Origin: a virus
Taxonomy: Duplodnaviria; Heunggongvirae; Uroviricota; Caudoviricetes
Length of the DNA stretch: 64,000 nucleotides
Virus record (IMG/VR): IMGVR_UViG_3300023202_000102
Span: 2,700 to 66,699 of that record
Reading direction: 5' to 3' (one strand)
The translations under genes were made by a program, and so were the position numbers. The notes below the pieces were generated by a model. The model made no database searches. It was not told the DNA's origin and saw only the letters and a program-made list of their open reading frames with translations. Below are positions 5,101 to 50,603 of the stretch, one piece after another. How positions within the stretch are numbered: position 1 is the first letter of the stretch; every line of letters begins with the position of its first letter.

Positions 5101-5634
5101 TGATTGTACTAGTTCATAATCATAGTACTGACCATGCTTAAGGTAACCAGTAAAAAACCTATCAGAGTTTCTTGCACCAATGTTAAGTGGCTCTGTATTG
5201 AGTGTGCTTCCTGTTAGGTTATTAGTATCAGTTGATGTTGGTTGAGCTGTTCCGTCAACGTAAATTGTAAGACCTGACACGTCAGAGTTTCCAGAGTATG
5301 TGACTATACAACAATGCCATTGTCCATTATTAAACCCGGACGTAGTGGTTCTAATCTGAAGACGAGCCGCTCCACCACCTACTCCCTCAAATCTAAACCA
5401 AATGTTTCCAGGCGTTGTATCCCCAACACCCCAGTAATACCCTCTAAAATCTCCGGTATTTTCTGCCTTAGATATCAATGATCCAAAGTCTGGATTGGAT
5501 GTTCTAAACCAGCACACCAGTGAGAACGGATCTAATCTATCTGGAGTTAAAAGATCGTTGTGCGGCACCTCGATGTGCTGATTGCCATTAAAAGACATGG
5601 CATTAGATGGTCTGTGTTTGAAAGTTAAGCTCAT
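2152..5634 (-). CDS. Large structural protein (1160 aa) with repeated concanavalin-A/LamG-like jelly-roll domains (tail fiber/baseplate-like)
   Basis: Repeated blocks such as 'LVCWFRTSNPDFGSLISKAEN...WHCCIVTYSGNSDVSGLTIYVDG' and 'WAISLWVKSTDSGINYLWAYN...EWHHVVFNKVSNSS...EIWVDG' are typical of LamG/ConA-like lectin folds. Confidence 0.5.
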   Translation of the reverse strand: MSLTFKHRPSNAMSFNGNQHIEVPHNDLLTPDRLDPFSLVCWFRTSNPDFGSLISKAENTGDFRGYYWGVGDTTPGNIWFRFEGVGGGAARLQIRTTTSGFNNGQWHCCIVTYSGNSDVSGLTIYVDGTAQPTSTDTNNLTGSTLNTEPLNIGARNSDRFFTGYLKHGQYYDYELVQSDVNVIYNGGRMIDVKGLELSGNMPVGYWPLKDGPLHTHLADGYDLDGYELDGATVNYNNSLVENGLRSGGDSRANPYSLVLNGTNQYGEIPHDPSLTFDTADPYTIVFWASRPSGADGHIIAKRNTSLDGWGIYIYPNGEIRHSQEDGGSFRGRDSDADAFPDDNLPHFITCEYDGSSDSSGMSFSADNIDIGSVNVSNDSPTSYGGTTDISIGARDTGLVTFEGNIYWVAVYNGTISLEDREAMYLAGPLAPPPKENRLLTSWCNNPLIIPHSNYSINFDNTGWVDLNAPAELDVFDYDTTWAISLWVKSTDSGINYLWAYNHPDAVSSEGQCGVQMRDSGKFRTYLEQVSDGNDFTVTTSSGGWNDGEWHHVVFNKVSNSSPVVASDFEIWVDGRSESLDNDDTDSITSTCIDASAVHNLGSRSDGESTLTGQMDDVAMFDRPLSGTEITSIYNGGTTKNVTDTTAFSNLIGYWYMGDDDTFPTLLDYSGNSNPAIMTDMDSGDIIEDAPKTLIVPSYPSAVRLENSPKYNIQRYTLPISAGKLGTDYDPLALFPLDTNLIDESSNGRETLSVEAGSESYVRYESGAHGAYMDGTNEFGQSSTDSDLQITGDITVEWTYYCRQLPSSGEDQFVRMGGPSDSSADNVLYQSSVLSTGALQYFAEHSGGTNISYTTSAGVIEEGKLYHCTMKRESSVVSFYLNGVLVGESGTLTDPTGGSSGLLTIGYNTATSEGIISNVKIIDRALSDYDINKETDKALGRVSVSDLFSGIIIDLDANNAVGTTTTDEVTDASTNAYLFEDLNGPVGLNQSDSDFRGNASWASPPSNNDGFQNNSVPNYNQMTLYIVAKYIASSGGIFSSTNSTWIMARFTSGGAPGVSIPPSAIKAAEPSGTPVCVWVARIDGSNSRFELHPDGQSADLVDGTLNSFTPANGMRILTNQFLTSKYESTSTRFIACQGAHSNEAIAKNVEYLKQQYGVVTI

Positions 5635-5643
5635 TACAACCTC

Positions 5644-6414
5644 TTAGATATGTTTTATTATGTGGTTACCACTAGACATAGCTATGTTATTTATAGCTTT
5701 GATGCCCTCAAAAGCCGCCTTAGCATCTAGCTTAATGGGATTTGATTTGTCTGGAATTAATGTTAGTTTATCTTCTGACCACTCTCCCTGGTGATATCCG
5801 CTACAGTTCCATACATGAGGTAAAGCATCGCCTGGAACTGGATAGGTGTGCTGGTGCCCTGACCATCTTACAAACGCATAGTCCTTTGATGAGCGTGGTA
5901 GGATTTTATATCCCTCATCAATCATCTCAGATACCCATACAGAATCTTCACCCCATGGCTGTTCTGTTTCTTTGAAATAGATAGATTTATCTATTCTCCC
6001 AGCCAAAGTGCCACCACAAGCACCTCGGAAAACCCTCTTTGACTCACAGTAATATAGGCTTCCACTCTCAGCTCTCACATACACACTAGGAATGCCCGTC
6101 CCATCAGCGCCCATTTTTCTAACACTATCAATCTCTGGTAAGTACTCTGGCCCGTAGTAATCATCAACATCGATTCGTACAAACCAATCACCAGGAGCGG
6201 ACTCTTTTTTCAGATGGTCGAAAGCACTCTGTAAAAATGGAACAACACCAACCTTATCCTGAGTAATGGCGTCGTCAAACAACCCCATAGCTTCGCCTGT
6301 TTCAACCACAAGAACCTGAACATTTAGATTACTTTTGTTAAGTCTATCCAGGTTCTTGTGAAGTTGTTTTTCAAATACTTTATCTTTGATTCCGATAACT
6401 AACCAATACTTCAT
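5644..6414 (-). CDS. Hypothetical protein, possible GT-A fold glycosyltransferase (DxD-like 'RIDVDDY')
   Basis: 256 aa ORF between structural genes; N-terminal 'YWLVIGIKDK...NVQVLVVETGE' followed by 'IDVDDYYG' resembles a nucleotide-sugar transferase Rossmann-like N-half; weak. Confidence 0.35.
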   Translation of the reverse strand: MKYWLVIGIKDKVFEKQLHKNLDRLNKSNLNVQVLVVETGEAMGLFDDAITQDKVGVVPFLQSAFDHLKKESAPGDWFVRIDVDDYYGPEYLPEIDSVRKMGADGTGIPSVYVRAESGSLYYCESKRVFRGACGGTLAGRIDKSIYFKETEQPWGEDSVWVSEMIDEGYKILPRSSKDYAFVRWSGHQHTYPVPGDALPHVWNCSGYHQGEWSEDKLTLIPDKSNPIKLDAKAAFEGIKAINNIAMSSGNHIIKHI

Positions 6415-6428
6415 GTCTTTCCATTGCC

Positions 6429-9110
6429 TTAGTCATCAACCATAGTGATAAGGGTTAGCTCTATTTGTACAAAGTATCTTGGCTGATCTGCTGTTCCAGC
6501 AGATCCGATTTGAACCCTTGGAGCAGCAGGAGAGTCGCCATCATTTGTTGCAACAAAGGTTAATGATCCGGCTGATGCTGCAAGAAGTTCGTCATCAATC
6601 CTATCAGAGGTGCTAGAATATCCATTAGAATCTCCTCCCCATGTCCAGGAGGCAACCCATTTAGATACATCGTATGACGATCCGTCAGCTCTTTGAACAG
6701 ATACAGTTACTGCTGCCATGAGCTTGGCATCATCGCTTCCAATTGGGGTTACACCACCAATTACAAAAGGAAGATCATAGTTAACTGCATCTTCATTATT
6801 GTTTTCCAAAACCACAAACAATGTCTCAGTGCCAACCTGGGCCGTTGTGGATGGAACATAATTATCAACATAACCATCAGACTCAAATGCAACTACATTG
6901 TCATTACCAGACTGATCTGTGAAAACCATCTTCTCATCATCACGGACCCAGAGTGTTCCCTCGTCTCCAGCTCCAGATGATGGATCGTATGGTGTTGTTG
7001 ATTGTTCAGAGAAAACCATTCCGGTTGGGTCTATTAGACCACCAACCGTAAGTTTGTTTGTTATCTCAAGGCTACCATTTACAAGAACAATACCATCTGT
7101 TCCTGATGTTGACGCTCCTGGATTAAGTTCAATATTACCAGAGTCACCACCATTTGTATCACCTGTTGATAATACAATAGATCCAGAGTTGGAGCTTGCT
7201 GCAGCTCTTGAGTTATCTCCGGTTGTAACAGAGAAACCTCCGGTTACAGTTGCGTCTGTGTCATCCGAGTCTCCAGATGTAAAGGTAAACCCTCCAGAAT
7301 CTCCTCCCTGTGCATCTCCAGTTGTTACATCAAAACCACCAGAGCCGCCTGTGTTTCCCGCTCCGGAAGTAAAAGAGAAACCACCAGACGTACCGCTACC
7401 ACCGGCACCAGTTACAACATCAAAAGAACCAGATCCTACGCTGTCACCAGACCCTGTTGTAAGAGTAATAGAACCAGAACCTCCAGAGTTTCCTGCTCCG
7501 GTAGTGACCGATACAGATCCTGAAGCTCCGCTTTGACCTGCGCCAGTAAGAATATCAACATCGCCCGAGCCGTTGGCTGGAGAACCTCCCGTTAAAGTAA
7601 TTGTTGTTGGATTGCCACCGCCGCCGGTATTGTTTGTTCTAAGAACAACACTTCCAGAATCAGAGCCTCCGTCTATCTGAAGGGCTTCAAGCAATACCTG
7701 CCCACCAGTTCCGGAAACTCCATTGGCTGATGTTCTAAGTATGATATCACCACCTTCATTACCAGAAGCATCTGTTTGAATTCTAATATTACCGCCAGCG
7801 GCTGAGCCAACACTAGGCGTTGCTGTTCCCGTTGTATAGTTACGAATTAGAATTTCATCACCAGGGCCGCCCTGTGATTGAGCTTGAATGGAAATTGGTC
7901 CGGAACCGCCACCATCTCCTGTGCTTTCAATAGTAATCGGAGCGCCGGGGCCGCCGCCGCCAGCATCAGTTCTAATAGTAATCTCACCTGAGATGCCCGA
8001 ACCAGTTGTGATTAGATCAATGGTACCAGAAGTTCCTCCGGTTGATGTTGTGGTTAATGAAATGTCTCCAGAGTTACCACCGGTTGTGGTACTAAAGTTA
8101 AAGTTACCACCATTACCACCTGGATTTGTGTTGATAAAGGATACATCGCCACCTCCAGTACCAGAACCATCTAGAGTTACTGTGAAGTTTCCAGGAGATC
8201 CAGAGCCGTTGTTTGAATCAAATACAAAATCACCACCTGTGGTGCCAGATCCGGTGAGCGTAACGTTAAGGTTTCCAGATGGCCCACCACCATTTGTGGA
8301 CTTTAAGTTTAAGTTACCACCAGCTGGCGCTCCTCCAGAGTAAGAGAAGATATCAATATCTCCCGATGGACCACCATTTGCACTAGAGAATAGGCTTACA
8401 TTACCAGCGGTTGAAGAGCTGATAGATGCGACAACTACATCACCAGATGGTGCAGCCGTACACTCGGAGGAAAGCTTTACCTGTCCAGAGGTGTTAGATG
8501 TTGAGAACGATCCGTAATAACCATCTCCAGATCTACCATTAGTAGACTCTGCTCTAACGGTTAGGGTTCCACCAAATCCAGAGTTTCCACTACCTGTTGT
8601 GATAGAGACATCACCAGAGTCTCCTGTTCCAACACTGGACCCTGTGCTAACAATAAAATCTCCACCATTATTGGTTCCAGTACCTGTTGTAAGAAATAAA
8701 TTACCAGAACTTCCCGCTCCATTATCTTTGGTTCTAATGGTTACCGCATCTGTTGCAAGTTCGCCAGTAATAGTATCGCCCGTTGACAGTTCTATACTTG
8801 TTCCTCCGGTAACATTTCCAAGACTTAAGGTCTCTGCCAGGTCTTCGTTGCCACCTGTACCTCCAACACCCGGTCCACCGATTACAAAATCAGTAGCAGT
8901 ACGGTCAGTATAAACTAAGTAACCATCATCTCTGGTCCATACCAACCCTTCTGTTCCTGAGGCTGATGGATCGTAAGGCGCAGAACCTTGCTCATTCATT
9001 GCGTTACCCGCAACGTTAGTCATGTTTGCACCAGAGGCATTTACACTGCCACCGTTGTCCTTATCGAGGATTGTAATTGGACCTAGTTGTTCTTCAATAG
9101 GGCGTACCAT
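6429..9110 (-). CDS. Glycine-rich repeat fiber protein (paralog), start placed at internal ATG 9110
   Basis: ORF 6429..9143. The ATG at 9110 (GGAGA Shine-Dalgarno) gives MVRPIEEQLGPITILDKDNGG, matching the conserved N-terminus of paralogs and avoiding overlap with the gene ending at 9121. Contains two copies of the 'PYDPS..G.EG.LWVRDD' module. Confidence 0.6.
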   Translation of the reverse strand: MVRPIEEQLGPITILDKDNGGSVNASGANMTNVAGNAMNEQGSAPYDPSASGTEGLVWTRDDGYLVYTDRTATDFVIGGPGVGGTGGNEDLAETLSLGNVTGGTSIELSTGDTITGELATDAVTIRTKDNGAGSSGNLFLTTGTGTNNGGDFIVSTGSSVGTGDSGDVSITTGSGNSGFGGTLTVRAESTNGRSGDGYYGSFSTSNTSGQVKLSSECTAAPSGDVVVASISSSTAGNVSLFSSANGGPSGDIDIFSYSGGAPAGGNLNLKSTNGGGPSGNLNVTLTGSGTTGGDFVFDSNNGSGSPGNFTVTLDGSGTGGGDVSFINTNPGGNGGNFNFSTTTGGNSGDISLTTTSTGGTSGTIDLITTGSGISGEITIRTDAGGGGPGAPITIESTGDGGGSGPISIQAQSQGGPGDEILIRNYTTGTATPSVGSAAGGNIRIQTDASGNEGGDIILRTSANGVSGTGGQVLLEALQIDGGSDSGSVVLRTNNTGGGGNPTTITLTGGSPANGSGDVDILTGAGQSGASGSVSVTTGAGNSGGSGSITLTTGSGDSVGSGSFDVVTGAGGSGTSGGFSFTSGAGNTGGSGGFDVTTGDAQGGDSGGFTFTSGDSDDTDATVTGGFSVTTGDNSRAAASSNSGSIVLSTGDTNGGDSGNIELNPGASTSGTDGIVLVNGSLEITNKLTVGGLIDPTGMVFSEQSTTPYDPSSGAGDEGTLWVRDDEKMVFTDQSGNDNVVAFESDGYVDNYVPSTTAQVGTETLFVVLENNNEDAVNYDLPFVIGGVTPIGSDDAKLMAAVTVSVQRADGSSYDVSKWVASWTWGGDSNGYSSTSDRIDDELLAASAGSLTFVATNDGDSPAAPRVQIGSAGTADQPRYFVQIELTLITMVDD

Positions 9111-9120
9111 AGTTCTCCGC

Positions 9121-12100
9121 TTATGCGTTATCCTCAGTTTCAATAGAGGCAGTGATCACAGTATTGGTTGTTGCTGTGCCTGTGTTGTTTGTAAATGTAA
9201 GAGTGATAACGTCTGATGCTTCTGATGCTACCAATGTATAGTTAGTATCATTGAAATCTAACACTGCATTGTCTGCGTGAATTGTGGTTCCATCTCCGGA
9301 ATCATCTCTGTGTACGAGCACGATTCCTCTATAGAAATCTCTGACGTTACCAGTGGATGTGTGTGTCTTAACTTTTACGTTGTAAGTGACAGTGTCTCCA
9401 TCTGCTACTGTTGGTAATGCGAGCGTTAGGGTTCCACTTGATGCGGAGACGGCTCCAGAGTTTACTTGTGTGGATGATAGTTGATTGATCTCTCCGGAAA
9501 GACCGTGAGCTTGTATTGCGCCATCAGCTCCAGAAGATGCTGTACCTGGAATTAAATCAATATCACCAGCGTCTGAAGATCCTGCGGCTGTTCCTGTTTG
9601 TATGGTAATTCCACCAGATCCAGAACCTCCGGTATTGTTCCCTGTTGCTATGGTAATTTCACCAGTATCATCAGCTGAAGCAGTTCCTGTTGTTAGGGAT
9701 ATGTATCCAGACAATGCTCCCTGACCAACGCCAGTTGTAACTTCAAAGTTACCGGAACCTAAATCACCACCGGGTCCTGTTGTAAATGTAACATCACCAG
9801 AGCCTCCAAAGGTTCCTCCGGCACCGGTTACAACATCAAAACCTCCGGCTCCTCTTGGTCCAATACCCTGGCCTGTTTCGAAGTAAAATCCTCCAGAGCC
9901 TCCACCGGATGTTCCAAGGCCTGTTGTAAGTGTAAACCCTCCAGAGTACCCATCATTACCAGAGTGATCGCCGGTTGAGAATGTTACATCTCCAGAATCA
10001 TATCCATCTGCTGAAACATCACCAGATGTAAATGAAAAGCCTCCAGAAGACATAGATCCACCAGTGCCTGTAACAAAACCAACCCCTCCTGAGCCTCCAC
10101 TATTTCCTGCTCCAGAAGTAAATGAGAATCCGCCCGACTCTCCACCATTACCATCTCCTGATGTTAATGTGAACCCTCCAGATCCAAGAGTAGAGCCTGC
10201 TCCAGTTGTAAATGTAAATGCACCTGAACCACCAGAGTTACCATGACCAGTAGTAAGTGATATTGAACCGGAGTCTCCTCCTGTTTGACCATTACCAGTT
10301 ACAACTGAGAAGTCACCCCCTCCACCATAACCATCGAAAGATGCGCCCTCTCCAGTAGTAATGGTAATGTCTCCACCGCCGCCCATTGTTCCAGAATCAA
10401 GGGTAGCTCCACGTCCTGATGTGATTTCTATATTTCCTGGAGAACCATAGATACCATCTCCAGAATAAATAAATACTGATCCGGATCCTCCTCCGTCTGT
10501 TCCACCATCTCCGGTAAACAAACTTAGATCACCAGACAAACCTCCATTACCGGCTCCAGAAGATAATGATACATCGCCAGAGCCAGAATCAGCACCAGAT
10601 CCAGAACCAATAGTGACAGCACCAGATAGCCCTAAAGGTCCACCACCTCCTGATTCAAGTATTACATCTCCACCTGGTCCACCTGAGTTTGCAGATCCAG
10701 ATCTCAAAGTTAAAGAGCCAGCGGTTCCCAAGAAGTTTCCGCTATTACCAGCAGATATTGAAACGCTTCCCGGACCAGAGTTTACAGATCCAGAGCTTGC
10801 TGCATTGACTGTTACCGAGCCGCCTGTTCCAGTTCCCTGTGCTTGTCCTGCAAAAAGCTGTAAGGATCCTCCATCTCCAGAGGTAGCACCACCTTGGCCG
10901 CCATTCCAAATGATGCCTCCACCATCTCCCGTTACACCTCCAGCTCCAGAGTTAAAAGTGTAACCTCCTCCATTTCCAGAGCCATCACCGCTACCTGGTT
11001 GGAAAATAAGATCGTTTCCAGATCCGCCACCAGTTCCATCTGGTGTTCTAAAGTTTGTCCCTCCAATCATATAAACATTGGAGTTCATATTGATTTGACC
11101 ATTGGAGCCTGGACCTGTTCCAGCAGTAAGCTCAATACTTCCACCATCAGACGAACCAGAGCCATTACCAGCGGTTACGTTAACAGCACCACCGTTACCA
11201 TTTCCTCCAGGGTTGGCTCCTGCTGTAATGTTTACATCACCACCTACCGCGACATTTCCAGAGTCACCAGCTGTAAGGGTTACATCACCACCTCTAACCG
11301 TTCCTGACGATCCGTCTCCCGCTGTAAGGGTTATGTCTCCCGCGTCAAAGTTAGATGATGCTCCGACCGCTACGCTGAAACCACCTGATGGTCCGCCATT
11401 TCCAAGCCCAGTAACAAAAGATACAGCCCCAGATCCATTTGCATTACCATTACCGGTAGTGAAGGTCATTGAACCTGATGCGCCTGCGCCTGGTCCCGAA
11501 CCGGTAGTTACAGAAAAATCACCACCATCACCAGAGGTACCCCCTCCAAGGCCAGTTGTAATTTCTACGTTGCCACCATTGCCAGTTCCGCCTGTCGCGG
11601 CGGACCTACCAGAGTTAATGAACACACCACCACCAACATCACTGGCTGCGCCATCTCCAGCCGTAGCATTGATTGAACCGCCTTCACCTGATGTTGTAGC
11701 AGTGCCAGGCGTTATGTTTACAGAGCCAGCATTACCTCCGGTATTGCCACCAGCAAAAAGATTTAATGCTCCTCCTGTTGTTGCGTCAACCTGAATTGAT
11801 ATTGTGGATCCAACAATAGGAATGCCGCCAACATCATTTCCAATGGCTAGGGTTTCCGCGAGAGTTTCTCCACCACCCGAACCACCACCAATACCATTCA
11901 AATCAATTGTATTGTCCGCACCACCTTGATCGGTGAACATGAGGTAGCCATCATCGCGAACCCAAATTAATCCCTCTGTTCCGGTAACAGAAGGATCATA
12001 AGGGGCCGATGCCTGTTCGGAGAATACTAAACCTGGAGGATCGATGAGGCCATTTACTGTTAGTTTTCCGGTAATTAATAGGTCATCATCAATGGTTACA

Positions 12101-12612
12101 TACCCATCAGGAGATGAAATTACAGACCCAAGGGTAAGAAGAATGTCCTCACCATCTGTAGAGTTTCCAGTTTGCAGTGTCTGAAATAAATCCTGAGATG
12201 GTACAATGGTGGCCGCACCATCAATGTCAGCTAGGTACCAAAACTCTACATCATCTGATGTAAGAAGCGTTGGTGGATATGTTCCAATGTAAGTTACGGA
12301 GTTTCCAGACTGAGTATAGTCTACTCCTTCGGCTAGCTTGATTCCGTTCAGGAACATCTGAACATACCCATCGGCAACCGGAACCGATGACAATGTAAAG
12401 TTTACCTGTCCGTTAAATGTGACTGGAACTATCTCTTGTTGCTGACCAACTGAGACGTTCAAAGCATCTACATAAGCTTTTGTTGCCGCATCCTGCGGGT
12501 CAATTGGGTCTGTAAGGTTGACAATTCTGGCTGTAAATGCATCAACAGTAGATGCTCCATCTTTTGCCAACAGCGTAATTTGCTGTAGGAATTTTTCGCT
12601 AACACGAACCAT
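9121..12612 (-). CDS. Glycine-rich repeat fiber protein (1163 aa, paralog)
   Basis: N-terminus MVRVSEKFLQQITLLAKDGAS; module 'LIDPPGLVFSEQASAPYDPSVTGTEGLIWVRDDGYLMFTDQ'; long GGFSFTSGAGNSGGSGG-type cassettes shared with the 6429 gene. Confidence 0.6.
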   Translation of the reverse strand: MVRVSEKFLQQITLLAKDGASTVDAFTARIVNLTDPIDPQDAATKAYVDALNVSVGQQQEIVPVTFNGQVNFTLSSVPVADGYVQMFLNGIKLAEGVDYTQSGNSVTYIGTYPPTLLTSDDVEFWYLADIDGAATIVPSQDLFQTLQTGNSTDGEDILLTLGSVISSPDGYVTIDDDLLITGKLTVNGLIDPPGLVFSEQASAPYDPSVTGTEGLIWVRDDGYLMFTDQGGADNTIDLNGIGGGSGGGETLAETLAIGNDVGGIPIVGSTISIQVDATTGGALNLFAGGNTGGNAGSVNITPGTATTSGEGGSINATAGDGAASDVGGGVFINSGRSAATGGTGNGGNVEITTGLGGGTSGDGGDFSVTTGSGPGAGASGSMTFTTGNGNANGSGAVSFVTGLGNGGPSGGFSVAVGASSNFDAGDITLTAGDGSSGTVRGGDVTLTAGDSGNVAVGGDVNITAGANPGGNGNGGAVNVTAGNGSGSSDGGSIELTAGTGPGSNGQINMNSNVYMIGGTNFRTPDGTGGGSGNDLIFQPGSGDGSGNGGGYTFNSGAGGVTGDGGGIIWNGGQGGATSGDGGSLQLFAGQAQGTGTGGSVTVNAASSGSVNSGPGSVSISAGNSGNFLGTAGSLTLRSGSANSGGPGGDVILESGGGGPLGLSGAVTIGSGSGADSGSGDVSLSSGAGNGGLSGDLSLFTGDGGTDGGGSGSVFIYSGDGIYGSPGNIEITSGRGATLDSGTMGGGGDITITTGEGASFDGYGGGGDFSVVTGNGQTGGDSGSISLTTGHGNSGGSGAFTFTTGAGSTLGSGGFTLTSGDGNGGESGGFSFTSGAGNSGGSGGVGFVTGTGGSMSSGGFSFTSGDVSADGYDSGDVTFSTGDHSGNDGYSGGFTLTTGLGTSGGGSGGFYFETGQGIGPRGAGGFDVVTGAGGTFGGSGDVTFTTGPGGDLGSGNFEVTTGVGQGALSGYISLTTGTASADDTGEITIATGNNTGGSGSGGITIQTGTAAGSSDAGDIDLIPGTASSGADGAIQAHGLSGEINQLSSTQVNSGAVSASSGTLTLALPTVADGDTVTYNVKVKTHTSTGNVRDFYRGIVLVHRDDSGDGTTIHADNAVLDFNDTNYTLVASEASDVITLTFTNNTGTATTNTVITASIETEDNA

Positions 12613-12844
12613 TTATGCTCCGATTTTTGCAGTTCTGCGGGTCCGTGATGATGCAGAGATATGCCCGTGCTAAAGAAACACAGCTTAAAAACCAAATGCT
12701 TTTGACGATCTGTGTTATTTTGGTTTGCAAACTCCCAGAAAACAAAGAGTTCATGTCCAAACTCTTTGAAAAATAAAAAGCGGGGCACTCTCAAGCTCAT
12801 AGAACTTTTACGGAAAATATCCTGCTCGTCCGTGCAGAAAAATC

Positions 12845-12872
12845 TTGACGTACCGTTTGCCATGAGTAGGGT
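12845..12872 (+). promoter_or_regulatory. Sigma70-like promoter TTGACG-16-TAGGGT upstream of the tRNA
   Basis: TCTTGACG at 12843-12850, 16 nt spacer, TAGGGT at 12867-72; same TCTTGAC(A/G) -35 family seen at 23129, 41670 and 49907. Confidence 0.3.
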
Positions 12873-12998
12873 TCTGGGCTGTAGTCAGTTCTTTTACTGA
12901 AGCACCAGGGATGGAGTGCTGGGGGTAAGGTGTTTTCACACCTATGCGTACATGTACTCTGCTGTAGGTACGGATTTAGGTGCAGACTAAATACTCAT

Positions 12999-13071
12999 GG
13001 GCCGATAGCACAACGGTCAGTGCGCCGGTCTCATAAACCGGTGGTTCTCAGTTCAAATCTGAGTCGGCCCA
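12999..13071 (+). tRNA. tRNA with anticodon CAT, elongator type, probably tRNA-Ile2 (lysidine substrate) rather than tRNA-Met; no encoded CCA
   Basis: Canonical cloverleaf: acceptor GGGCCGA/TCGGCCC, D-stem GCAC/GTGC, anticodon stem CCGGT/ACCGG with loop CTCATAA, T-arm CTCAG-TTCAAAT-CTGAG, discriminator A. G1-C72 is paired, so not an initiator. C4-G69 and C5-G68 match the TilS identity elements. Confidence 0.9.
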
Positions 13072-13084
13072 CTTGGAGGAAAAG

Positions 13085-13387
13085 ATGGAGTTGATAGTTG
13101 TTTCAAAAGAAGAACTGACACGGTTTGGGTGTCCCCACTGTGGTGGAGCAACAGAGGATGACTTTCTATCCTTTGGTTCTTGCTCTATCATTTGCTGTGA
13201 TGCTTGTGGACATCAGTGTGCAACTGTCAAGAACTCATGTGATGAGTTGGTATCTGTTCGTTCTGGTACTGACATTCAGAATTTGATTGGTCAGCACCCG
13301 TACAAGCGGCAGAATGATCGCATGATTGCTGCCCCTCTATTTGTTATCCCCAAATATTTCCCTTGCGCTTTTCGGCCGAAAGCGTAG
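13085..13387 (+). CDS. Small cysteine-rich hypothetical protein (Zn-binding?)
   Basis: ATG at 13085 with GGAGGA Shine-Dalgarno; MELIVVSKEELTRFGCPHCGG...CCDACGHQC multiple CxxC pairs. Confidence 0.4.
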   Translation: MELIVVSKEELTRFGCPHCGGATEDDFLSFGSCSIICCDACGHQCATVKNSCDELVSVRSGTDIQNLIGQHPYKRQNDRMIAAPLFVIPKYFPCAFRPKA

Positions 13388-13476
13388 GGTACTGAGCGGT
13401 ATGGCCAAGGACTGCCCCTCTCCTCACGGGCCCTTCGTACAGGTTCGTGGGGAGAATCTATTAAAGGAAATAAAAC

Positions 13477-13857
13477 ATGAGCGAAGTTACCAAAGAACAG
13501 GTTGTTGATTATCTTTCCAACCTTCCAGTCATTCAGATTTCAGAGCTTGTCAAAGAGCTTGAAGAGAAGTGGGGAGTGTCTGCCGCTCCTGTGATTCAGG
13601 GTGGTGTTGGGCCCGGACCTACTGATGAAGGTCCATCTGATGAAAAGACTGAGTTCGATGTTGTTCTGACTTCGTTTGGTTCTTCTAAGATGCCTATCAT
13701 TAAAGAGGTTCGTGCTCTCACTGGTCTTGGTTTGAAAGAAGCCAAGGAAAAGGTTGAGAGTGTTCCTTCAGTTCTCAAGGAAGGTATCTCCAAAGAGGAA
13801 GCCGAAGAGATCAAGGGCAAGATTGTCACAGCCGGTGGAGAGGTAGAGATCAAGTGA
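13477..13857 (+). CDS. rplL: Ribosomal protein bL12 (L7/L12)
   Basis: Near-collinear with bacterial L7/L12: N-terminal dimerisation helix, hinge '[18 protein letters not shown]', C-terminal domain '[40 protein letters not shown]...LKEG(I)[17 protein letters not shown]'. Confidence 0.88.
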
Positions 13858-14186
13858 ACCCCTCTCGTCGTGCATTGATTTCTATTCTTCATTCGAGAAA
13901 AACATCTCAGGTCATTCACGGCGAGAACCTTCTCACAACAGAGAAGGCTATAGAAGATGCTGCGCGGGATGCTCTTGATGAGTTTTCAGATCAGATAGAA
14001 GACGTTAGTCATGAGCAGTTAATTTCAATTTGCCAAGGGCTGTTTGTTCGAAGCATTGCAATGCTAGCTGTAACTTCTGAAGAAGACCCAGAACGTGGTG
14101 AGATCATTAATGAACTCACCAAAGATATCTGTTCAAAAGTTCTTGATGAAGAAGAGAGTGTTCCGCACCTACGTTTGGTAAGGTAG
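13854..14186 (+). CDS. Hypothetical protein (acidic; possibly a sigma-associated N-terminal region)
   Basis: GTG start overlapping the rplL stop; 110 aa ORF ending immediately at the sigma-factor start. Confidence 0.35.
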
Positions 14187-14810
14187 ATGGAATCACAGAT
14201 AGAAATATTCAATAAATACAAGAGGCTAGCATACAAGATAGCAAATCAGTTCTCTTATATTTGGCCTCATTACAAAGACGAAATAGAATCCGCTGCGATG
14301 TTTGGTCTTTGGGAGGCCGCTAAGAAAACAGAGTGTGATAATCCAATCAGCCTTTACTCTGCGATTATCAAAAATCATATCTTATATGTCTCAACTAAGT
14401 TTGATCCTATTTCAAAATGGTATAAAAGGAAAATCGCAGATGGAGAGATGGACGAGATAAGTTTTGTTTCTACAGACTCTCATTCTCAGTCAGATGATAG
14501 CTCTGGTTTTGAAAGTAAACTTTTTACAGAGATTGACTCAGCAATTGGACACTCCGAGACCATAGAAGATCAGCTCATTCAAAAAGAAATTGAACTAGAG
14601 CGTAGTAAGATTGTTCGCAGTGCAATCAAACAGCTCCCTCAAAAACAAAGGTTCATTGTTAGGTCTATCTTTTTTAAAGGCAAGAGTGGTAATGAGCTTG
14701 CCAAAGAATGGAACTGCTCTGGTGAAAATGTTCTAAGGCAAAAAAGAAACGCATTAAAAACAATGAGCCAATCAAACTCACTAAAGAAACTAAATACCAA
14801 ACTCAACTAG
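14187..14810 (+). CDS. Sigma-70 family RNA polymerase sigma factor (small, regions 2 and 4)
   Basis: Region 2 'IESAAMFGLWEAAKKTECDNPISLYSAIIKNHI' (compare DLIQEGNIGLMKAVEKFDP..FSTYA.WWI) and region 4 HTH 'LPQKQRFIVRSIFFKGKSGNELAKEWNCSGENVLRQKRNALKTM'. Confidence 0.7.
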   Translation: MESQIEIFNKYKRLAYKIANQFSYIWPHYKDEIESAAMFGLWEAAKKTECDNPISLYSAIIKNHILYVSTKFDPISKWYKRKIADGEMDEISFVSTDSHSQSDDSSGFESKLFTEIDSAIGHSETIEDQLIQKEIELERSKIVRSAIKQLPQKQRFIVRSIFFKGKSGNELAKEWNCSGENVLRQKRNALKTMSQSNSLKKLNTKLN

Positions 14811-14817
14811 AGGTAAG

Positions 14818-15552
14818 ATGCCCAAGCTAAATCAAATTGTAGCCATCGAAGATGGTACCAAAAAGCGTGACCATAAAGAGATCTCTGCCATCTACAAGTC
14901 ACTTCAGAAGCCTGACTTGTTTAATGGGTTCTTCAGAACCTATACCCCCATCAATGATGAGGATATTGTTTATCCGGCCGAGCAAAAGAATGTTCAGCAA
15001 AAATGCCATGAGCTTCTTGAGCTTGTCAAGTCTAACAAAATTGAGCTTTGGAATGTCATTGCCACTAAGGATTACGCCAACTGTCAGGCTAAGGCTGATA
15101 TTGTTGTAGATGGTGTCGCTCTTGCGAGCGACGTTCCTGTAACTCATCTTCTCTTCTTAGAGAAGCAGTTGAATGATCTGAAAGATTTTATACTAAAGCT
15201 TCCGGTCTTGGACCCTACAAAGACATGGGGCTTTGATTCAAACAAAGACCTCTACGTCTCACAGTTTGTAGAGGAAAGACTCAAGACTAAGAAGATTCAC
15301 AAATCTGTAATCAAGTTCGAGCCTTCTGAGCATACTCCTGGCGATGCGGATGTTGTTACAGTAGATGAGCCAGAAGGTCGTTGGAAACAGGAAGATGTAT
15401 CAGCAGCCTTCCCTGCTAACAAGATTCGTGAGGTAATGACACGAGTCACTAAGCTTCAAGAGGCAGTAAAGTTTGCTCGTGAAGAGGCGAACTCTCTTGA
15501 AGTAGAGAAGCAAAAGATTGCCGAAGGAATGCTTGAATACATCTTTGGATAA
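14818..15552 (+). CDS. Hypothetical protein (244 aa)
   Basis: Good ORF with AGAGG Shine-Dalgarno; follows the sigma gene; no recognisable motif. Confidence 0.5.
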   Translation: MPKLNQIVAIEDGTKKRDHKEISAIYKSLQKPDLFNGFFRTYTPINDEDIVYPAEQKNVQQKCHELLELVKSNKIELWNVIATKDYANCQAKADIVVDGVALASDVPVTHLLFLEKQLNDLKDFILKLPVLDPTKTWGFDSNKDLYVSQFVEERLKTKKIHKSVIKFEPSEHTPGDADVVTVDEPEGRWKQEDVSAAFPANKIREVMTRVTKLQEAVKFAREEANSLEVEKQKIAEGMLEYIFG

Positions 15553-15998: not shown

Positions 15999-16652
15999 AT
16001 GGGCAGTGGAGTAGATAGGCTATCAACATCTCCGCTGCCCTTTCTATATTTGGAGCAAATACGACCAATGAAAGAATTCATAGAGCTTGTTCTCATATCT
16101 CTAGAGCGTGATAACCTCATCAAATTAGGTAGCATTCTCTTCCTTCTCAGTTTCTGTCACTTTGTTGTTGACTGGGGTTTTCAGAGCCATAAGGAAGCAA
16201 TGAACAAAGCCACGAATCATAACATAAGGTTCGTGCATTGTTGCGTGTACACCATTGGAATGCTACCGTTGGTAGCTCTTCTTATTGGAGATCACACAAG
16301 GATAGGGCAGGCTGTCCTTACATGCGCAAGCGTCATGTGGATTAGCCACTTTCTCATTGATACATATATCCCAGTGTATCTGTGGGTCAAGTACATTAGA
16401 AGACCACCAAGCAAAGATGTAACAGAACTTGAGTACTTCAAAGATTTCGCATCAACTCCAATAGGCCTCTTCCTGGTAATAGCAATGGACCAGGTGTTTC
16501 ATTTACTATTTCTAATCCCAGTTGCGCTAACAATTATGTGGCCAACCTTTTATTATTATTGGGGATTGGTCTCTGGTTTCTTTGTTTTATTACTGTGTTG
16601 GTCGGTAGTGTTTGGAGTGAAAAAACTATATGCCATTCAAGAGAACAGATAA
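15999..16652 (+). CDS. Integral membrane protein (multi-pass), hypothetical
   Basis: 217 aa with about 5 hydrophobic helices (e.g. ILFLLSFCHFVV, LPLVALLIGD, IGLFLVIAMDQVFHLLFLIPVALTIMW, GLVSGFFVLLLCWSVVF). Confidence 0.5.
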   Translation: MGSGVDRLSTSPLPFLYLEQIRPMKEFIELVLISLERDNLIKLGSILFLLSFCHFVVDWGFQSHKEAMNKATNHNIRFVHCCVYTIGMLPLVALLIGDHTRIGQAVLTCASVMWISHFLIDTYIPVYLWVKYIRRPPSKDVTELEYFKDFASTPIGLFLVIAMDQVFHLLFLIPVALTIMWPTFYYYWGLVSGFFVLLLCWSVVFGVKKLYAIQENR

Positions 16653-17466
16653 AGGAAAAGTTCAATACCCAAATGGAATTTCCTCAGAAGATAGAAGGTT
16701 CTGTAGAAAAGTGTTCAACGAAATGGGTGAATACATCGATGTAGACGGCGATCCTAATGCACAAAAAGAACTTATCATTGCATGCTCTGGTGGTTTGGAC
16801 AGCACTGTGCTTGCGCATGTGTTTGCGCAAATGTGTATTATCTCTGGTCTAAAAAAGAATCGTGTTAAACTTGTGTATGTTGACCATGGGCTCCGAAATT
16901 TGGTTGAGTTACACCGGGATGCAACACACGTTATCAACCTTGCCGAAATGCTTGGATTCAATGGAGAGGTAATTAAGGTCACCCTTAATGAGGGTAATGT
17001 TCAAGAACAAGCTCGCATTGCTAGGTATGATGCCCTGGCAGCAATGGCTGTCCAAACAAGTTCGGGAGATTATGCCGATGTTTTACTGGCTCACCATGCC
17101 AATGACGTTGCAGAAACAAAGCTGTTTCAATTCCTTACAGGTCGAAAGGTTACCGGGATTGAATCAAATCTTTCTTGGTATATCAAATCTGAGCACGAAA
17201 AAGATCCCAACCCATTGGTGCCAAAGTGTGAATACACCATTGATTTTTTCAGACCCTTTCTAAATCTTACACGTTCTGATTTAGAAAGATACGCTAGGAT
17301 TTGGAACCTACAATGGGTGGAAGATTCTACCAATGGTACTAACAAGTACACACGAAACCGTATCCGTCATGAACTAATTCCATGGATTGAAAAAAATGTA
17401 AACCCAGGTGTTATCAACACACTAGTGGGGCTTCATGAAAAAGAAAGAGAAGCTGACGATACCTGA
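16630..17466 (+). CDS. tilS: tRNA(Ile)-lysidine synthetase TilS (PP-loop ATPase), short form
   Basis: PP-loop 'ACSGGLDSTVLAHVF'; TilS-specific 'AHHANDVAETKLFQFLTGRKVTGIE' (compare aHHxDDQaET..lRl.RG). Confidence 0.78.
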   Translation: MPFKRTDKGKVQYPNGISSEDRRFCRKVFNEMGEYIDVDGDPNAQKELIIACSGGLDSTVLAHVFAQMCIISGLKKNRVKLVYVDHGLRNLVELHRDATHVINLAEMLGFNGEVIKVTLNEGNVQEQARIARYDALAAMAVQTSSGDYADVLLAHHANDVAETKLFQFLTGRKVTGIESNLSWYIKSEHEKDPNPLVPKCEYTIDFFRPFLNLTRSDLERYARIWNLQWVEDSTNGTNKYTRNRIRHELIPWIEKNVNPGVINTLVGLHEKEREADDT

Positions 17467-17576: not shown

Positions 17577-17984
17577 TTGGTATCATGTCGTGGAGGAACC
17601 GACATGCTCAATGTACTAGTAGCCGCACTCATGGAAGTTGTTGACACCAGCAACGATCTAAAAACAGGTAACGTCGAAGCTGGAGAACTTACAGCTGCGA
17701 AGAAGCGTTTCTTTTCTGCGCTTAACGAGTTTGTTGATTACCGAGTTAAAGTTGCCATGGACCAACGCAGAAGGAACATCAGCCAGGAAAGAATAGCTGT
17801 TGCTGACTCTATCAATGCTGCTGTAAAGTCCACTGCGAGTACAATCAAAAGTATCTCTGCTCTTAACTCGGCTCCCGCTCCGTTTCCACCAGCAGACGCC
17901 ACTAAAGAAGAGATTGAAATTTGGTTTGCGGCTTATAAAGATTGGTATGAAAACAAGAGAAGGGAAGGCATTACAATAGAATAA
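17577..17984 (+). CDS. Hypothetical protein
   Basis: 135 aa ORF; the true start may be the ATG at about 17604 (MLNVLVAAL). Confidence 0.4.
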   Translation: MVSCRGGTDMLNVLVAALMEVVDTSNDLKTGNVEAGELTAAKKRFFSALNEFVDYRVKVAMDQRRRNISQERIAVADSINAAVKSTASTIKSISALNSAPAPFPPADATKEEIEIWFAAYKDWYENKRREGITIE

Positions 17985-18923: not shown

Positions 18924-19517
18924 ATGAAGTCAGCCACCTACGGCAAAAATAAGCAGGAAGGAAAACCCCCTGCGGTGATCCTTACGAACCCCAAGTACTC
19001 GTACAATGTGGGTGGCGCACAGCGTGCGTGCTCTTGTTGGGGTGTTTCTCAGCTGTGGTGGACGGGCAATCGTGTACGTTTTGAAGCAACTGAATCTGGA
19101 AAAGGCAACAAGAAAAGACTTCCAAGAGAAGAGCGAATGAAAGGATACATGGATGTTGAACTGCGACAGTTCGATTATCCATTTGATCAGTTCGACAAAA
19201 GCGTAACAACTGTTGCTATTGAACTGATACCTGGAGCCGAACCTCTACCAACATTCGAACACCCCGAAAACGCCGTGTATGTTTTCGGGCCAGAAGATGG
19301 TTCAATTGATTCTGTTACCAGAAAGCATTGCCATCGTTTTGTTTCCATTCCTGCTCATCACTGTATGAATCTTTCTATGGCTGTTGGGCTTGTTCTGTAT
19401 GATAGGTTCATTAAGATGAACCAAGATGTTAGACTTGAGGATATCCTCAAGGAGAATCGATATGATTTCACTGACCATAGGTTGGCAGCGAAAGAAATGG
19501 GATTAGTTTCAAGATGA
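18924..19517 (+). CDS. SpoU/TrmH-family RNA 2'-O-ribose methyltransferase
   Basis: SpoU motifs 'ILTNPKYSYNVGGAQRA', 'VYVFGPEDGSIDSV', 'VSIPAHHCMNLSMAVGLVLYD'. Confidence 0.6.
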   Translation: MKSATYGKNKQEGKPPAVILTNPKYSYNVGGAQRACSCWGVSQLWWTGNRVRFEATESGKGNKKRLPREERMKGYMDVELRQFDYPFDQFDKSVTTVAIELIPGAEPLPTFEHPENAVYVFGPEDGSIDSVTRKHCHRFVSIPAHHCMNLSMAVGLVLYDRFIKMNQDVRLEDILKENRYDFTDHRLAAKEMGLVSR

Positions 19518-19705: not shown

Positions 19706-20192
19706 TGAAGAAGATTTATCTTGCTGGTCCTACGTATTCAGGTCAGACTCAAAAGAGATAGGTAAGTTTCTCAAAGGGCTTTGTGAGGCTTTTGGTTTTG
19801 AAGGTGTGTATCCATTAGACAACGAGATATCAAACATCGAATCGAAACCAAGGCAAGCTCTTGGTAAAGAGATTGCTGAAGCAAATGTCGAACTCATTCA
19901 TGGGTGTGATTATGTTTTAGCAAACCTTGAACCTTTTCGAGGGCCAAGCGCAGACTGTGGAACAGTCTGGGAGTGTGCCTATGCTAAAGGTTTGGGAAAG
20001 ATGGTTGCTGGATACTCAAAGACAAAATCATTACCATACAAAGACAAAGTCCTCAACGTACTTCCTCATGATGGAATGATGGTAGAAGACTTTCACGCTT
20101 GGGATAACATCATGTTAGTGCATGGTATTGATTTTATGTGTAGTGACCCTCGTGTTGGTTTACAATGGCTTAGAGAACAGGACAAGAAATGA
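19705..20192 (+). pseudogene. Nucleoside 2-deoxyribosyltransferase-like (PF05014) gene with an apparent -1 frameshift after codon about 17
   Basis: ATG at 19705 gives the family N-terminus MKKIYLAGPTYSGQTQKR then TAG. The remainder (…EIGKFLKGLCEAFGFEGVYPLDNE…DCGTVWECAYAKGLGKMVAGY) is in the -1 frame (track ORF 19656..20192). The junction is in an A-run 'ACTCAAAAGAGATAG'. Confidence 0.55.
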
Positions 20193-20782
20193 TTCAAGAC
20201 ATATACCCTCCGGTTGTTGTTGAAACAACAATGAAAGGTGAGAAACATTGGGATATCTTTAGCCGTTTGATGAGGGACCGCATCATCATTCTTGGTGATG
20301 TAATAGATGATGATGTTGCTAACATCATTATTGCGCAGATGTTGTACCTTCAAAACGAGGATTCGGAGAAGGACATCGATCTTTACATCAACTCTCCCGG
20401 TGGAATCGTTACATCAGGTATGGCCATACTTGATACGATGAATTACATCAAGTGTAATGTGAAGACTATCTGTATGGGTCAAGCCTCATCAATGGGCGCT
20501 CTGCTTCTTGCCGCAGGAACCAAAGGCAAAAGAAAAGCATTACCCAATGCACGAGTAATGATCCACCAACCGCTTGGGGGTGTGCGAGGACAGGCCTCAG
20601 ACATTAAGATCCAAGCCGACGAGATAGATAAGATCAAGAATAAAATCACAGATATTCTGGTAAAAGCTACCGGACAAAATCGTGACAAGGTCTACCAAGA
20701 TATAGACCGTGACTTCTATCTATCAGCCGAAGAGGCCAAAGAGTATGGCCTTATTGATGAAGTAATTTCTTCTGGTGACTAA
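20189..20782 (+). CDS. clpP: ATP-dependent Clp protease proteolytic subunit ClpP (copy 1)
   Basis: Collinear with ClpP; catalytic Ser in '[11 protein letters not shown]', His in '[10 protein letters not shown]', Asp in '[12 protein letters not shown]'. Confidence 0.9.
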
Positions 20783-27132: not shown

Positions 27133-27927
27133 ATGGCTCAAACAACATTACAGCAAAGGCAGATAGGATATGAAAAGATTACTGACCAACGAATCATGGG
27201 GAGAGTTCCTGTGGTTATCTCATTGGATGCGAAGAAATTCCTCACAGTAACTAAGTCTGTTCAAAAACCTTTCTGTCACAAGACAATGGCCCTCCTAAAT
27301 GACACAATGCTTTCTATGGTAAAACAAATAGATGGCTGTGTGTTGGGGTACCAATATAGTGATAAGATCATTTTGATTCTGAAGAATGACAAGAACGCTG
27401 ACCCCTGGTATGGGAACCGCACATTGCCAATGGCAACAGTTGCATCCTCAATGGCTACCTGGGAGTTCATGAGTAACTTTTATCAGATGGACAACCCTCC
27501 CGATCTGGAAGGATCCATTCTATGGAAAGGTCATGCATTTGGTTTGCCTGATCATAATGAGGTTGTGAACTATCTCATTCATCATCAGTATCAGTGCATG
27601 CATCATTCTGTAAACAAAGCTGTCTACTCTTTACTTGAAACAAGGTATGGAGATCAAACGGCCGAACTTCTCAAAGAGAAGAACATGGATGATAGGAAGC
27701 GGATTCTGGAAGAGGCGGGGCTAGACCTGTCCGACTTTCCCAGCTCTTATCTTCATGGTTCCTTAGTGTATAAGATCCCCAAGATGGAAGAGACATCTGA
27801 GGGTCATATGCAGAGGACCCGATGGATGTTAGATATGAAAATCCCGCTGTTCACAGAGATGCGGGAGATGATTCATACCATCCTAGATACTGGCAGTGAT
27901 GTGTTCAAGCCGGAGCGCGATGCGTGA
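27133..27927 (+). CDS. Thg1-like protein (tRNA-His guanylyltransferase family, 3'-5' nucleotidyltransferase)
   Basis: 'GRVPVVISLDAKKF' (compare VVVRLDGRNF), 'QYSDKIILILK' (compare GQSDEYSFVFK), 'TLPMATVASSMATWEF' (compare ASKFMTHVASQFAS); length 264 aa fits. Confidence 0.55.
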   Translation: MAQTTLQQRQIGYEKITDQRIMGRVPVVISLDAKKFLTVTKSVQKPFCHKTMALLNDTMLSMVKQIDGCVLGYQYSDKIILILKNDKNADPWYGNRTLPMATVASSMATWEFMSNFYQMDNPPDLEGSILWKGHAFGLPDHNEVVNYLIHHQYQCMHHSVNKAVYSLLETRYGDQTAELLKEKNMDDRKRILEEAGLDLSDFPSSYLHGSLVYKIPKMEETSEGHMQRTRWMLDMKIPLFTEMREMIHTILDTGSDVFKPERDA

Positions 27928-50569: not shown

Positions 50570-50603
50570 AAAGCCCCTTGGTAATCCAAGGGGCTTTTTT
50601 TGT
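50570..50603 (+). terminator. Rho-independent terminator (perfect 12-bp stem, TAAT loop, U-tract)
   Basis: AAAGCCCCTTGG-TAAT-CCAAGGGGCTTT-TTTTTGTT. Confidence 0.85.

Follow-up and report, generated by a model that had tools for sequence, protein, structure and literature searches.

The ribosomal protein bL12 (L7/L12) attaches as dimers, by its N-terminal domains, to helix alpha-8 of bL10, at four to six copies per ribosome. Flexible hinges lead to the C-terminal domains, which bring in IF2, EF-Tu, EF-G and RF3 and promote the hydrolysis of GTP. Of the ribosomal proteins, bL12 is the most readily exchangeable, moving on and off ribosomes. We have analyzed a gene for this protein, rplL, found in a 64,000-nucleotide stretch of Caudoviricetes DNA (positions 2,700 to 66,699 of IMG/VR virus record IMGVR_UViG_3300023202_000102). 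The gene lies at positions 13477-13857 of this stretch, which is referred to below as the window and represents 64 kb of a 193.8-kb contig.

Virus-encoded ribosomal proteins blur the line between virus and cell, and bL12 is the second most common of them (Mizuno et al. 2019, Nat Commun 10:752; PMC6375957). Viral bL12 genes have been acquired repeatedly and are under purifying selection, and phage bL12 was discussed in 2019 as a possible interface for translation factors (PMC6375957). Huge phages, too, have been reported to carry L7/L12 (Al-Shayeb et al. 2020, Nature 578:425; PMC7162821). Direct evidence for phage bL12 on ribosomes is thin. The published test case is a C-terminal-domain module within a protein of 418 amino acids (aa), and a single peptide supported the presence of one phage bL12 of this C-terminal-domain type in E. 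coli 70S ribosomes (PMC6375957).

The rplL gene of the window resembles the cases of Mizuno et al. in being phage-borne, cell-derived, under purifying selection, set in a lineage-specific context and separated from the rest of the stalk operon, and the role proposed for it, exchange into host ribosomes, is also the same. In contrast to the cultivated-phage cases, which are mostly C-terminal-only, share about 30-40% identity with cellular bL12, occur in proteins of up to 724 aa and belong to genomes of less than 80 kb, the present protein has all three parts of bL12, is 63-67% identical to cellular bL12 and comes from a genome of about 194 kb. The gene thus extends a known class of virus-encoded ribosomal proteins and leaves the picture unchanged. 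It makes a much cleaner candidate for study, being complete and under selection, with a docking domain indicative of a specific host clade and a factor-binding half that has measurably changed. A host can therefore be predicted for this uncultured phage of 194 kb, and together with host bL10 and bL12 the protein forms a defined pair for asking whether phages top up or rewire the stalk.

Results and discussion

A complete bL12 gene without rplJ

The phage gene encodes a complete bL12. In its product, residues 5-42 match the Pfam family Ribosomal_L12_N (PF16320; E value 4e-14, 52.4 bits, gathering cut-off 25), and residues 60-126 match Ribosomal_L12 (PF00542; E 3e-28, 98.4 bits, cut-off 25.9), the latter match spanning profile positions 1-67 of 67. 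Residues 1-126 also align with positions 1-125 of 125 of the NCBIfam equivalog TIGR00855 (144.7 bits, cut-off 84.4). With both Pfam domains present and an end-to-end TIGR00855 match, the gene is complete and not merely near full length, as a preliminary description drawn from the sequence had called it. E. coli bL12 chains in ribosome structures of the PDB align with the phage protein over its full length at 108 bits. Translation starts from an ATG codon that follows a Shine-Dalgarno sequence, AAGGA (13464-13468), by 8 nucleotides (nt). The exact protein is present both on the 193.8-kb Joint Genome Institute contig and in the Logan assembly of SRR23862437, which agrees with the window at every position of a 20,381-nt stretch. 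An antisense open reading frame (ORF) of 107 aa inside rplL (13596-13919, minus strand) gives tblastn matches to other bL12 loci, and was rejected as a gene because these matches mirror the conservation of rplL itself.

The preliminary description had further placed the gene alone, without rplJ, next to a sigma factor gene and in a phage context, and within the window these points stand. A hidden Markov model (HMM) built from 74 cellular rplJ products, which recovered a positive control locus at 2e-60, detected no rplJ (bL10) gene when run on ORFs from all six frames of the window (best E 0.53). The typical cellular setting of rplL, downstream of rplJ, is accordingly absent from the window, as is expected of a virus-borne copy, and its absence has no bearing on the family to which the protein belongs. 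The sigma factor gene passes TIGR02937, and a 110-aa ORF (orf110) lies between it and rplL. The phage context is provided by prohead proteases, phrog_1383 and phrog_2087 proteins and fibre-like genes, as well as by synteny with phage-like contigs. No terminase or major capsid gene lies within the 64-kb window, so the phage assignment rests on these phage genes and on that synteny.

An old transfer under purifying selection

In a search covering 5.8 billion proteins, the only match at 100% identity was the phage bL12 itself, followed by a plateau of cellular bL12 at 60-67%. Alignment with bacterial bL12, which the preliminary description had proposed as the way to the closest host clade, points to the Myxococcales: the four named organisms within the top 120 matches are all Myxococcales or Polyangiaceae metagenome-assembled genomes (MAGs). 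A cluster look-up of further closest cellular matches returned no taxon names, and the scan of genome collections, being biased by exact peptide seeds, does not yield a true nearest-neighbour list.

The two top-scoring matches, P0002 (198 aa) and P0003 (201 aa), were considered as phage relatives and rejected as cellular genes adjoining rplJ; they owe their top bit scores to a duplicated C-terminal domain. Both lie directly 3' of rplJ on short metagenome contigs (L001 918-1514 and L002 1477-2082), the N-terminal motif of P0003 is also partly repeated, and they are either real tandem-domain variants of bL12 or assembly collapses.

The cellular bL12 proteins of MAGs labelled Myxococcota (P0029, P0036, P0040 and P0058) and those of loci L042 and L004 share with the phage protein its length, its architecture, a nearly exact N-terminal sequence and the TIGR00855 match. 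The genes differ in other respects. The cellular rplL follows rplJ in an rplKAJL-rpoBC arrangement, has a G+C content at third codon positions (GC3) of 0.71-0.86 and encodes an Ala-rich hinge, whereas the phage gene stands alone, has a GC3 of 0.41 and encodes a duplicated Gly/Pro/acidic hinge together with 26-27 substitutions in the 71 residues of the C-terminal domain.

The phage rplL is an old transfer that has been fully ameliorated and is under continued purifying selection. Its GC3 equals that of its phage neighbours and not that of the nearest cellular rplL genes. Synonymous divergence (dS) from cellular relatives is saturated or about 2, with third-position identity of 0.34-0.49, and the ratio of non-synonymous divergence (dN) to dS in the C-terminal domain is 0.13-0.17 where dS is finite (against L004 and L042), this being a comparison between lineages and not a population pN/pS. 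Ameliorated composition, saturated dS and low dN/dS together indicate that the transfer is old and that the gene has been maintained since.

Uneven divergence of the three domains

Divergence is uneven along the protein. Residues 4-38 are 89-94% identical to the corresponding part of 114 cellular bL12 proteins of one clade, whereas residues 56-126 share about 60% (at most 65%) with the same 114 proteins. Measured against P0029, P0036, L042 and L004, the N-terminal domain differs at 2-3 of 35 positions and the C-terminal domain at 26-27 of 71 (Fisher p 4e-4 to 2e-3). The ratio of N-terminal to C-terminal divergence between phage and clade is 0.13-0.22. When cellular proteins that differ by 30% or more in the C-terminal domain are paired, the N-terminal domain is normally the faster (median ratio 1.22), and only 1.6% of such pairs have a ratio of 0.20 or less. 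The dN against L004, L042 and L014 is 0.05-0.06 for the N-terminal domain and 0.31-0.33, about five to six times as much, for the C-terminal domain. Recent recombinational replacement of the N-terminal half was considered as the cause of this asymmetry and rejected, because the low third-position identity within that half (0.34-0.49) and an N-terminal GC3 of 0.44 rule it out.

According to the preliminary description, an N-terminal bL10-binding helix too divergent for the host stalk would suggest a non-ribosomal role. Instead, the domain retains its high identity despite saturated synonymous sites, an outcome that favors a ribosomal role, and it departs from the consensus of its cellular clade only at S2, V4 and S22. 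A docking domain that stays nearly identical to that of one clade over a saturating length of time is the pattern expected of a protein that has to go on fitting a host partner.

The hinge is of normal length and has been rebuilt through a 15-nt tandem duplication: two adjacent 15-nt copies, 80% identical, make up a direct repeat (family D7) at 13615-13644. Its composition is Gly/Pro/acidic where cellular bL12 has Ala, and residues I40, Q41, P48, T49, S54 and D55 are each rare, occurring in fewer than 3% of 196 cellular sequences.

An AlphaFold model of the phage protein, built as a monomer on 40 homologues, gives the C-terminal domain (residues 60-126) a predicted local distance difference test score (pLDDT) of 83-88 and the beta-alpha-alpha-beta-alpha-beta topology. 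Foldseek superimposes this domain model on E. coli 1ctf (1.7 Å) with a root-mean-square deviation of 0.9 Å and a TM score of 0.94, and on 3j9y_7 with a deviation of 1.1 Å. The hinge has a pLDDT below 50, and the N-terminal domain is modelled poorly (pLDDT 45-56), as is expected of a domain that exists as an obligate dimer on bL10.

Within the C-terminal domain the phage protein keeps every residue that is invariant in the 196 cellular sequences and contributes to the factor-binding face of helices 4 and 5: K71, I75, K76, R79, T82, L84-G85-L86-K87-E88-A89-K90, V93, P97, K101, E102 and K106. Five residues (M72, I74, I116, V117 and G121) depart from one that 85% or more of these sequences share, and P73, K92 and S98 are uncommon, each found in 4-5% of them. 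M72 is a hydrophobic replacement at the position of E. coli V66, where 187 of the 196 sequences have Ile; V117 replaces Glu, K92 replaces Leu, and P73 stands at the start of helix 4. The preliminary description had singled out the residues that contact translation factors. We take these to be K65, V66, I69, K70, R73, L80, K81, E82 and K84 of E. coli, a list that, with its position mapping, reportedly goes back to Helgstrand et al. 2007 and Diaconu et al. 2005. The phage protein carries identical residues at eight of these positions (K71, I75, K76, R79, L86, K87, E88 and K90), so that the core is kept, and has Met at that of V66. Conservation of this core in helices 4 and 5 favors ordinary bL12 activity. 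The greater divergence of the C-terminal domain and the remodelled hinge weigh the other way, and a phage copy may, as the preliminary description suggested, bias the recruitment of factors.

Possible roles in the host stalk

On balance we favor a reading in which the phage bL12 enters host stalks, works there as bL12 and sustains translation capacity during infection. An ancestor of the approximately 194-kb phage would have captured rplL, without rplJ, from a bacterium of the Myxococcales/Polyangiaceae-type clade. The protein would dimerize, either with itself or as heterodimers with host bL12, and would dock on the C-terminal helix of host bL10 by means of its host-like N-terminal domain; because bL12 is so readily exchanged, docking would be possible on existing ribosomes. 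Recruitment of host IF2, EF-Tu, EF-G and RF3 by the hinge and C-terminal domain would then proceed in the normal way, and stalk occupancy, and hence translation capacity, would be kept up or topped up as host expression is redirected. Expression timing, bL10 docking, ribosome incorporation and benefit to the phage are what we infer; for bL10 binding in particular the argument is an indirect one, from the 89-94% identity of the N-terminal domain to cellular proteins.

Several observations weigh against this reading. The C-terminal domain and hinge are clearly diverged (M72, P73, K92, V117 and the new hinge), and plain supplementation may therefore not be the whole story. The published precedent is itself qualified, as a tagged phage bL12 was unusable for purifying ribosomes (PMC6375957), so that incorporation is not firmly established even there. 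Regarding the host, two more members of the clade come from MAGs labelled 'Proteobacteria' and 'Gammaproteobacteria', taxon labels overall being few and mixed, and the 44% G+C of the phage against 62-64% at the closest cellular rplL loci is a large difference for a phage-host pair. Finally, sequences entered the cellular comparison set because they resemble the query, and the asymmetry statistics could be inflated as a result.

Alternatively, the protein might remodel the stalk. It would dock through its host-like N-terminal domain, but with a diverged C-terminal domain and a new hinge the stalk would capture different partners, whether this favors translation under infection or blocks the delivery of host stalk-dependent effectors to the ribosome. 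We regard such remodelling as unlikely. The five- to sixfold greater non-synonymous divergence of the C-terminal domain, the position of M72, P73, I74, K92 and S98 next to the factor-binding face, and the rebuilding of the hinge by tandem duplication are all in keeping with it, as is one match of the fold search, PDB 8phj, which contains the CRISPR-associated RNase Cami1 and the bL12 C-terminal domain on the 70S ribosome; Cami1 is reportedly captured by the ribosomal stalk. However, the strictly conserved core (K71, I75, K76, R79, L86, K87, E88, K90) is intact, the C-terminal domain remains under purifying selection at the dN/dS given above, and the large ORFs of the window include no evident translational GTPase of the phage. 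The faster change of the C-terminal domain could, moreover, reflect relaxed constraint in a copy that exists alongside host bL12. That the phage bL12 is an anti-defence or host-takeover protein, one that denies Cami1-type nucleases the A site or tunes recruitment for phage mRNAs, we consider improbable.

It is a little more doubtful still that the protein acts as a decoy or dominant-negative form, its dimers or heterodimers titrating factors or poisoning the host stalk and so contributing to shut-off, or that it has a non-ribosomal job. Most phage bL12-like sequences, including most of the 47 IMG/VR loci described below, are C-terminal-only modules in unrelated proteins, which shows that the bL12 domain is reused outside the ribosome, and viral bS21 strongly impaired translation in vitro (PMC6375957). 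The present protein has nevertheless kept the complete three-part architecture, its extreme N-terminal conservation is that expected of a protein fitting host bL10 and bL12, and a phage needs working ribosomes throughout infection.

A lineage-specific gene in a variable slot

Related phages were located with the DUF7873 gene as a syntenic anchor. The closest DUF7873 relatives, 52-57% identical, lie on three contigs of 71-454 kb (L131, L133 and L134). The window and these contigs have in common the N terminus of the fibre gene, DUF7873 itself and a 135-aa ORF at 17577-17984; the small Cys-rich ORF upstream of rplL is also found in L131 and L133, the tRNA with a CAT anticodon, tRNA(CAT), in L131 and L134, and the TilS and SpoU methylase genes in L134. 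Between the small ORF or tRNA and DUF7873, all three contigs carry unrelated genes, which have no similarity to bL12 or to the sigma factor and match no Pfam family. Since the related contigs lack rplL at this position, the gene is a lineage-specific acquisition, and rplL, orf110 and the sigma factor gene occupy a variable slot at the head of the rightward block (Table 1). The possibility that orf110 and the sigma factor are a split version of the 332-aa ORF in the slot of L131 was rejected, as no similarity and no Pfam family link them. No convincing flanking repeats mark an insertion at rplL.

Lineage specificity and a variable slot are also what one would see if rplL were a neutral passenger, a host gene gained by chance with no role in infection. 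This we consider very improbable: GC3 has been ameliorated from the cellular range to 0.41, and despite saturated synonymous sites the gene retains an open frame, 94% conservation of its N-terminal domain and a dN/dS far under 1. It also has a good Shine-Dalgarno sequence and probable coupling to the ORF that follows.

Searches for closer viral relatives gave little. When IMG/VR was scanned with one protein at a time (bL12, DUF7873 and the sigma factor), none came to light, and a DNA search with the rplL neighbourhood gave nothing useful. Against 50,697 phage records, tblastn returned only distant bL12 matches, the full-length ones at most 49% identical, and most of the matches in these records are bacterial contamination in 'phage' entries. 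That the locus is itself an artefact, whether through chimeric assembly or as a bacterial chromosome fragment, is hardly credible in spite of such contigs and of an IMG/VR locus (L089) with rplJ beside rplL, because a second assembler gave an identical 20.4-kb stretch, rplL matches the flanking phage genes and not its cellular homologues in composition and overlaps the next phage ORF by 4 nt, and no rplJ, rpoB or other ribosomal operon gene is nearby.

An alignment-based scan of IMG/VR identified 47 viral loci with bL12-like sequence. About nine are full length and the remainder are C-terminal-domain modules inside unrelated proteins; all but one (L089) have no rplJ next to them. None is syntenic with the window, which fits the repeated independent acquisition reported in the literature. 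The full-length proteins of L084, L086, L087, L088, L090, L096 and L098 are, like that of the window, stand-alone and of similar size (111-138 aa), four of them (L084, L086, L087 and L096) lying on contigs of 241-529 kb, and these full-length loci occur without adjacent rplJ and alongside tRNAs and tRNA-modification genes. They differ from the window in lacking synteny and in being only 32-53% identical to its protein, which makes them separate acquisitions. The excess of N-terminal conservation is absent in L084, L086, L087 and L089 and milder in L088 (0.72 against 0.55), as measured with a cellular set that was not chosen for those proteins. At another IMG/VR locus (L085 6001-6384; UViG_3300048586_000896), a 197-aa bL12 homologue has a C-terminal extension of about 70 residues past the normal end.

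Gene order around rplL

The three parts of rplL and the features that surround it are listed in Table 1. Judging from their arrangement, rplL is probably translationally coupled to orf110 and co-transcribed with orf110 and the sigma factor gene: the GTG start of orf110 is preceded at about 10 nt by GGAGAGG, and the sigma factor start directly abuts the orf110 stop. Neither orf110 nor the upstream Cys-rich ORF matches a family in Pfam, PHROG or NCBIfam. The sigma factor also matches phrog_351, RNA polymerase sigma factor (E 3e-11), and weakly a Pfam region 4 family.

Table 1. Coordinates of rplL, its parts and other features of the window
Feature	Position	Strand	Details
Fibre-like genes	2152-12612	-	Very large, Gly-rich; three consecutive ORFs of 1160, 904 and 1163 aa plus a 256-aa ORF
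Divergent intergenic region	12613-12998		Lies between the fibre genes, which run leftward, and the rightward block
tRNA, CAT anticodon	12999-13072	+	Head of the rightward block; ARAGORN, Rfam
Cys-rich ORF	13085-13387	+	100 aa from ATG; 38-43% identity to ORFs of L131 and L133
Second hairpin	13361-13389	+	12 bp, spanning the upstream ORF stop codon; -14.9 kcal/mol
Untranslated leader	13388-13476	+	89 nt; overlapped only by a mechanical out-of-frame ORF
Leader hairpin	13419-13455	+	14 bp (8 G-C pairs, some G-U), 9-nt loop; -22.4 kcal/mol
rplL, full-length bL12	13477-13857	+	126 aa plus TGA stop; Pfam, TIGR00855 and PDB matches
N-terminal domain, residues 1-39	13477-13593	+	Dimerization and bL10-binding module in cellular bL12
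Hinge, residues 40-55	13594-13641	+	Gly/Pro/acidic instead of Ala; 15-nt tandem duplication
C-terminal domain, residues 56-126	13642-13854	+	Translation-factor-binding module in cellular bL12
orf110	13854-14186	+	110 aa; GTG start overlaps the rplL stop (GTGA) by 4 nt
Sigma-70-family (ECF-like) sigma factor	14187-14810	+	TIGR02937, 54.1 bits (cut-off 42.9)
DUF7873 protein	14818-15552	+	PF25283, E 3.5e-84
ClpP-type prohead protease	20189-20782	+	phrog_94 head maturation protease, E 1.5e-47
ClpP-type prohead protease	51417-52085	+	phrog_94, E 3e-36
phrog_2087 protein	58333-59445		Homologues in 501 phage records
Virion structural protein	59445-60020		phrog_1383, E 1.7e-65

The rplL leader

The preliminary description had rplL preceded by about 90 nt of untranslated, structured sequence. 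The length is borne out, whereas support for the structure does not go beyond one hairpin. Of the perfect hairpins on the plus strand of the window, that at 13419-13455 ranks in the top three or four by strength, and it appears in both the minimum-free-energy and the centroid folds. Compared with shuffled sequences, the whole leader is not exceptional (z -1.5; 15 of 200 shuffles fold as well), and the leader with its flanks gives z -2.2 (4 of 200). From the folding predictions, a stable stem-loop is probably present in the transcript, 21 nt 5' of the ribosome-binding site.

The hairpin is followed by ATCTATTAAAGG, with no U-tract. Neither leader hairpin has the U-tract of an intrinsic terminator, and a terminator scan did not report 13419-13455. 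A search of 12900-14000 against Rfam with cmscan at E<=10 found no L10_leader (RF00557), the only real match being the tRNA, and no promoter-like site was reported in the leader. Like the L10 leader, that of the phage gene is untranslated, partly base-paired and located 5' of a stalk-protein gene; unlike it, the phage leader precedes rplL and not rplJ, has a single hairpin and does not match the covariance model. The leader has no similarity to the fetched cellular, viral and related-phage loci or to other parts of the window, so it was rejected as a repeated regulatory element and as a remnant of the host rplJ-rplL spacer. Processing or stabilization of the transcript after tRNA maturation, or attenuation, are guesses as to what the hairpin might do. 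Of the strong hairpins of the window, only one resembles a canonical intrinsic terminator, a perfect 12-bp G+C-rich palindromic hairpin at 50570-50597 (-21 kcal/mol) that has its T-run on the plus strand.

Translation-related and other genes of the window

Besides bL12, the window encodes a tRNA together with TilS-like, SpoU/TrmJ-like and Thg1-like proteins, and these form a translation-oriented gene set. In tRNA(CAT) the acceptor pairs include C4-G69 and C5-G68. The TilS-like protein (278 aa; 16630-17466, plus strand), encoded 3.5 kb 3' of the tRNA, matches TIGR02432, an equivalog-domain model for the TilS N terminus, at 141 bits (cut-off 93.6). Related tRNA(CAT) genes lie at 6618-6693 of L131 and 4944-5017 of L134, and a TilS gene of 47% identity at 9809-10531 of L134. 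The tRNA is probably a phage tRNA-Ile2 (lysidine) that, paired with TilS, serves to decode AUA; in 20 window ORFs, 11% of the Ile codons are ATA. TilS reportedly also features in papers on jumbo phages of Pseudomonas. The SpoU/TrmJ-like 2'-O-methyltransferase (18924-19517, plus strand) is about 71% identical to the L134 gene product, and the Thg1-like tRNA-His guanylyltransferase (27133-27927, plus strand) matches phrog_4717 at E 1.5e-31.

The two phrog_94 ClpP-like proteases are paralogues encoded 31 kb apart. Records with phrog_2087 include T4-like Aeromonas phages and Xanthomonas jumbo phages. The ORFs of the leftward fibre block contain long Gly/Ser/Thr-rich repeats and presumably encode tail fibres, the 1160-aa product having Laminin_G_3 domains; the repeats create many spurious ORFs on the opposite strand. 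Other genes of the window encode an NAD-dependent ligase, a glucosaminidase and a protein with a tail-terminator-like domain. An M16 (insulinase/pitrilysin-type) peptidase homologue (29397-30491, plus strand) has both active-type and inactive-type domains. A 582-aa protein (35439-37187, plus strand) ends in a peptidoglycan glycosyltransferase domain (Transgly, PF00912; E 6e-46) of the wall-synthesizing and not the lytic type, and a homologue with 34% identity (L086 4162-4953) adjoins the bL12 gene of the 529-kb IMG/VR contig L086.

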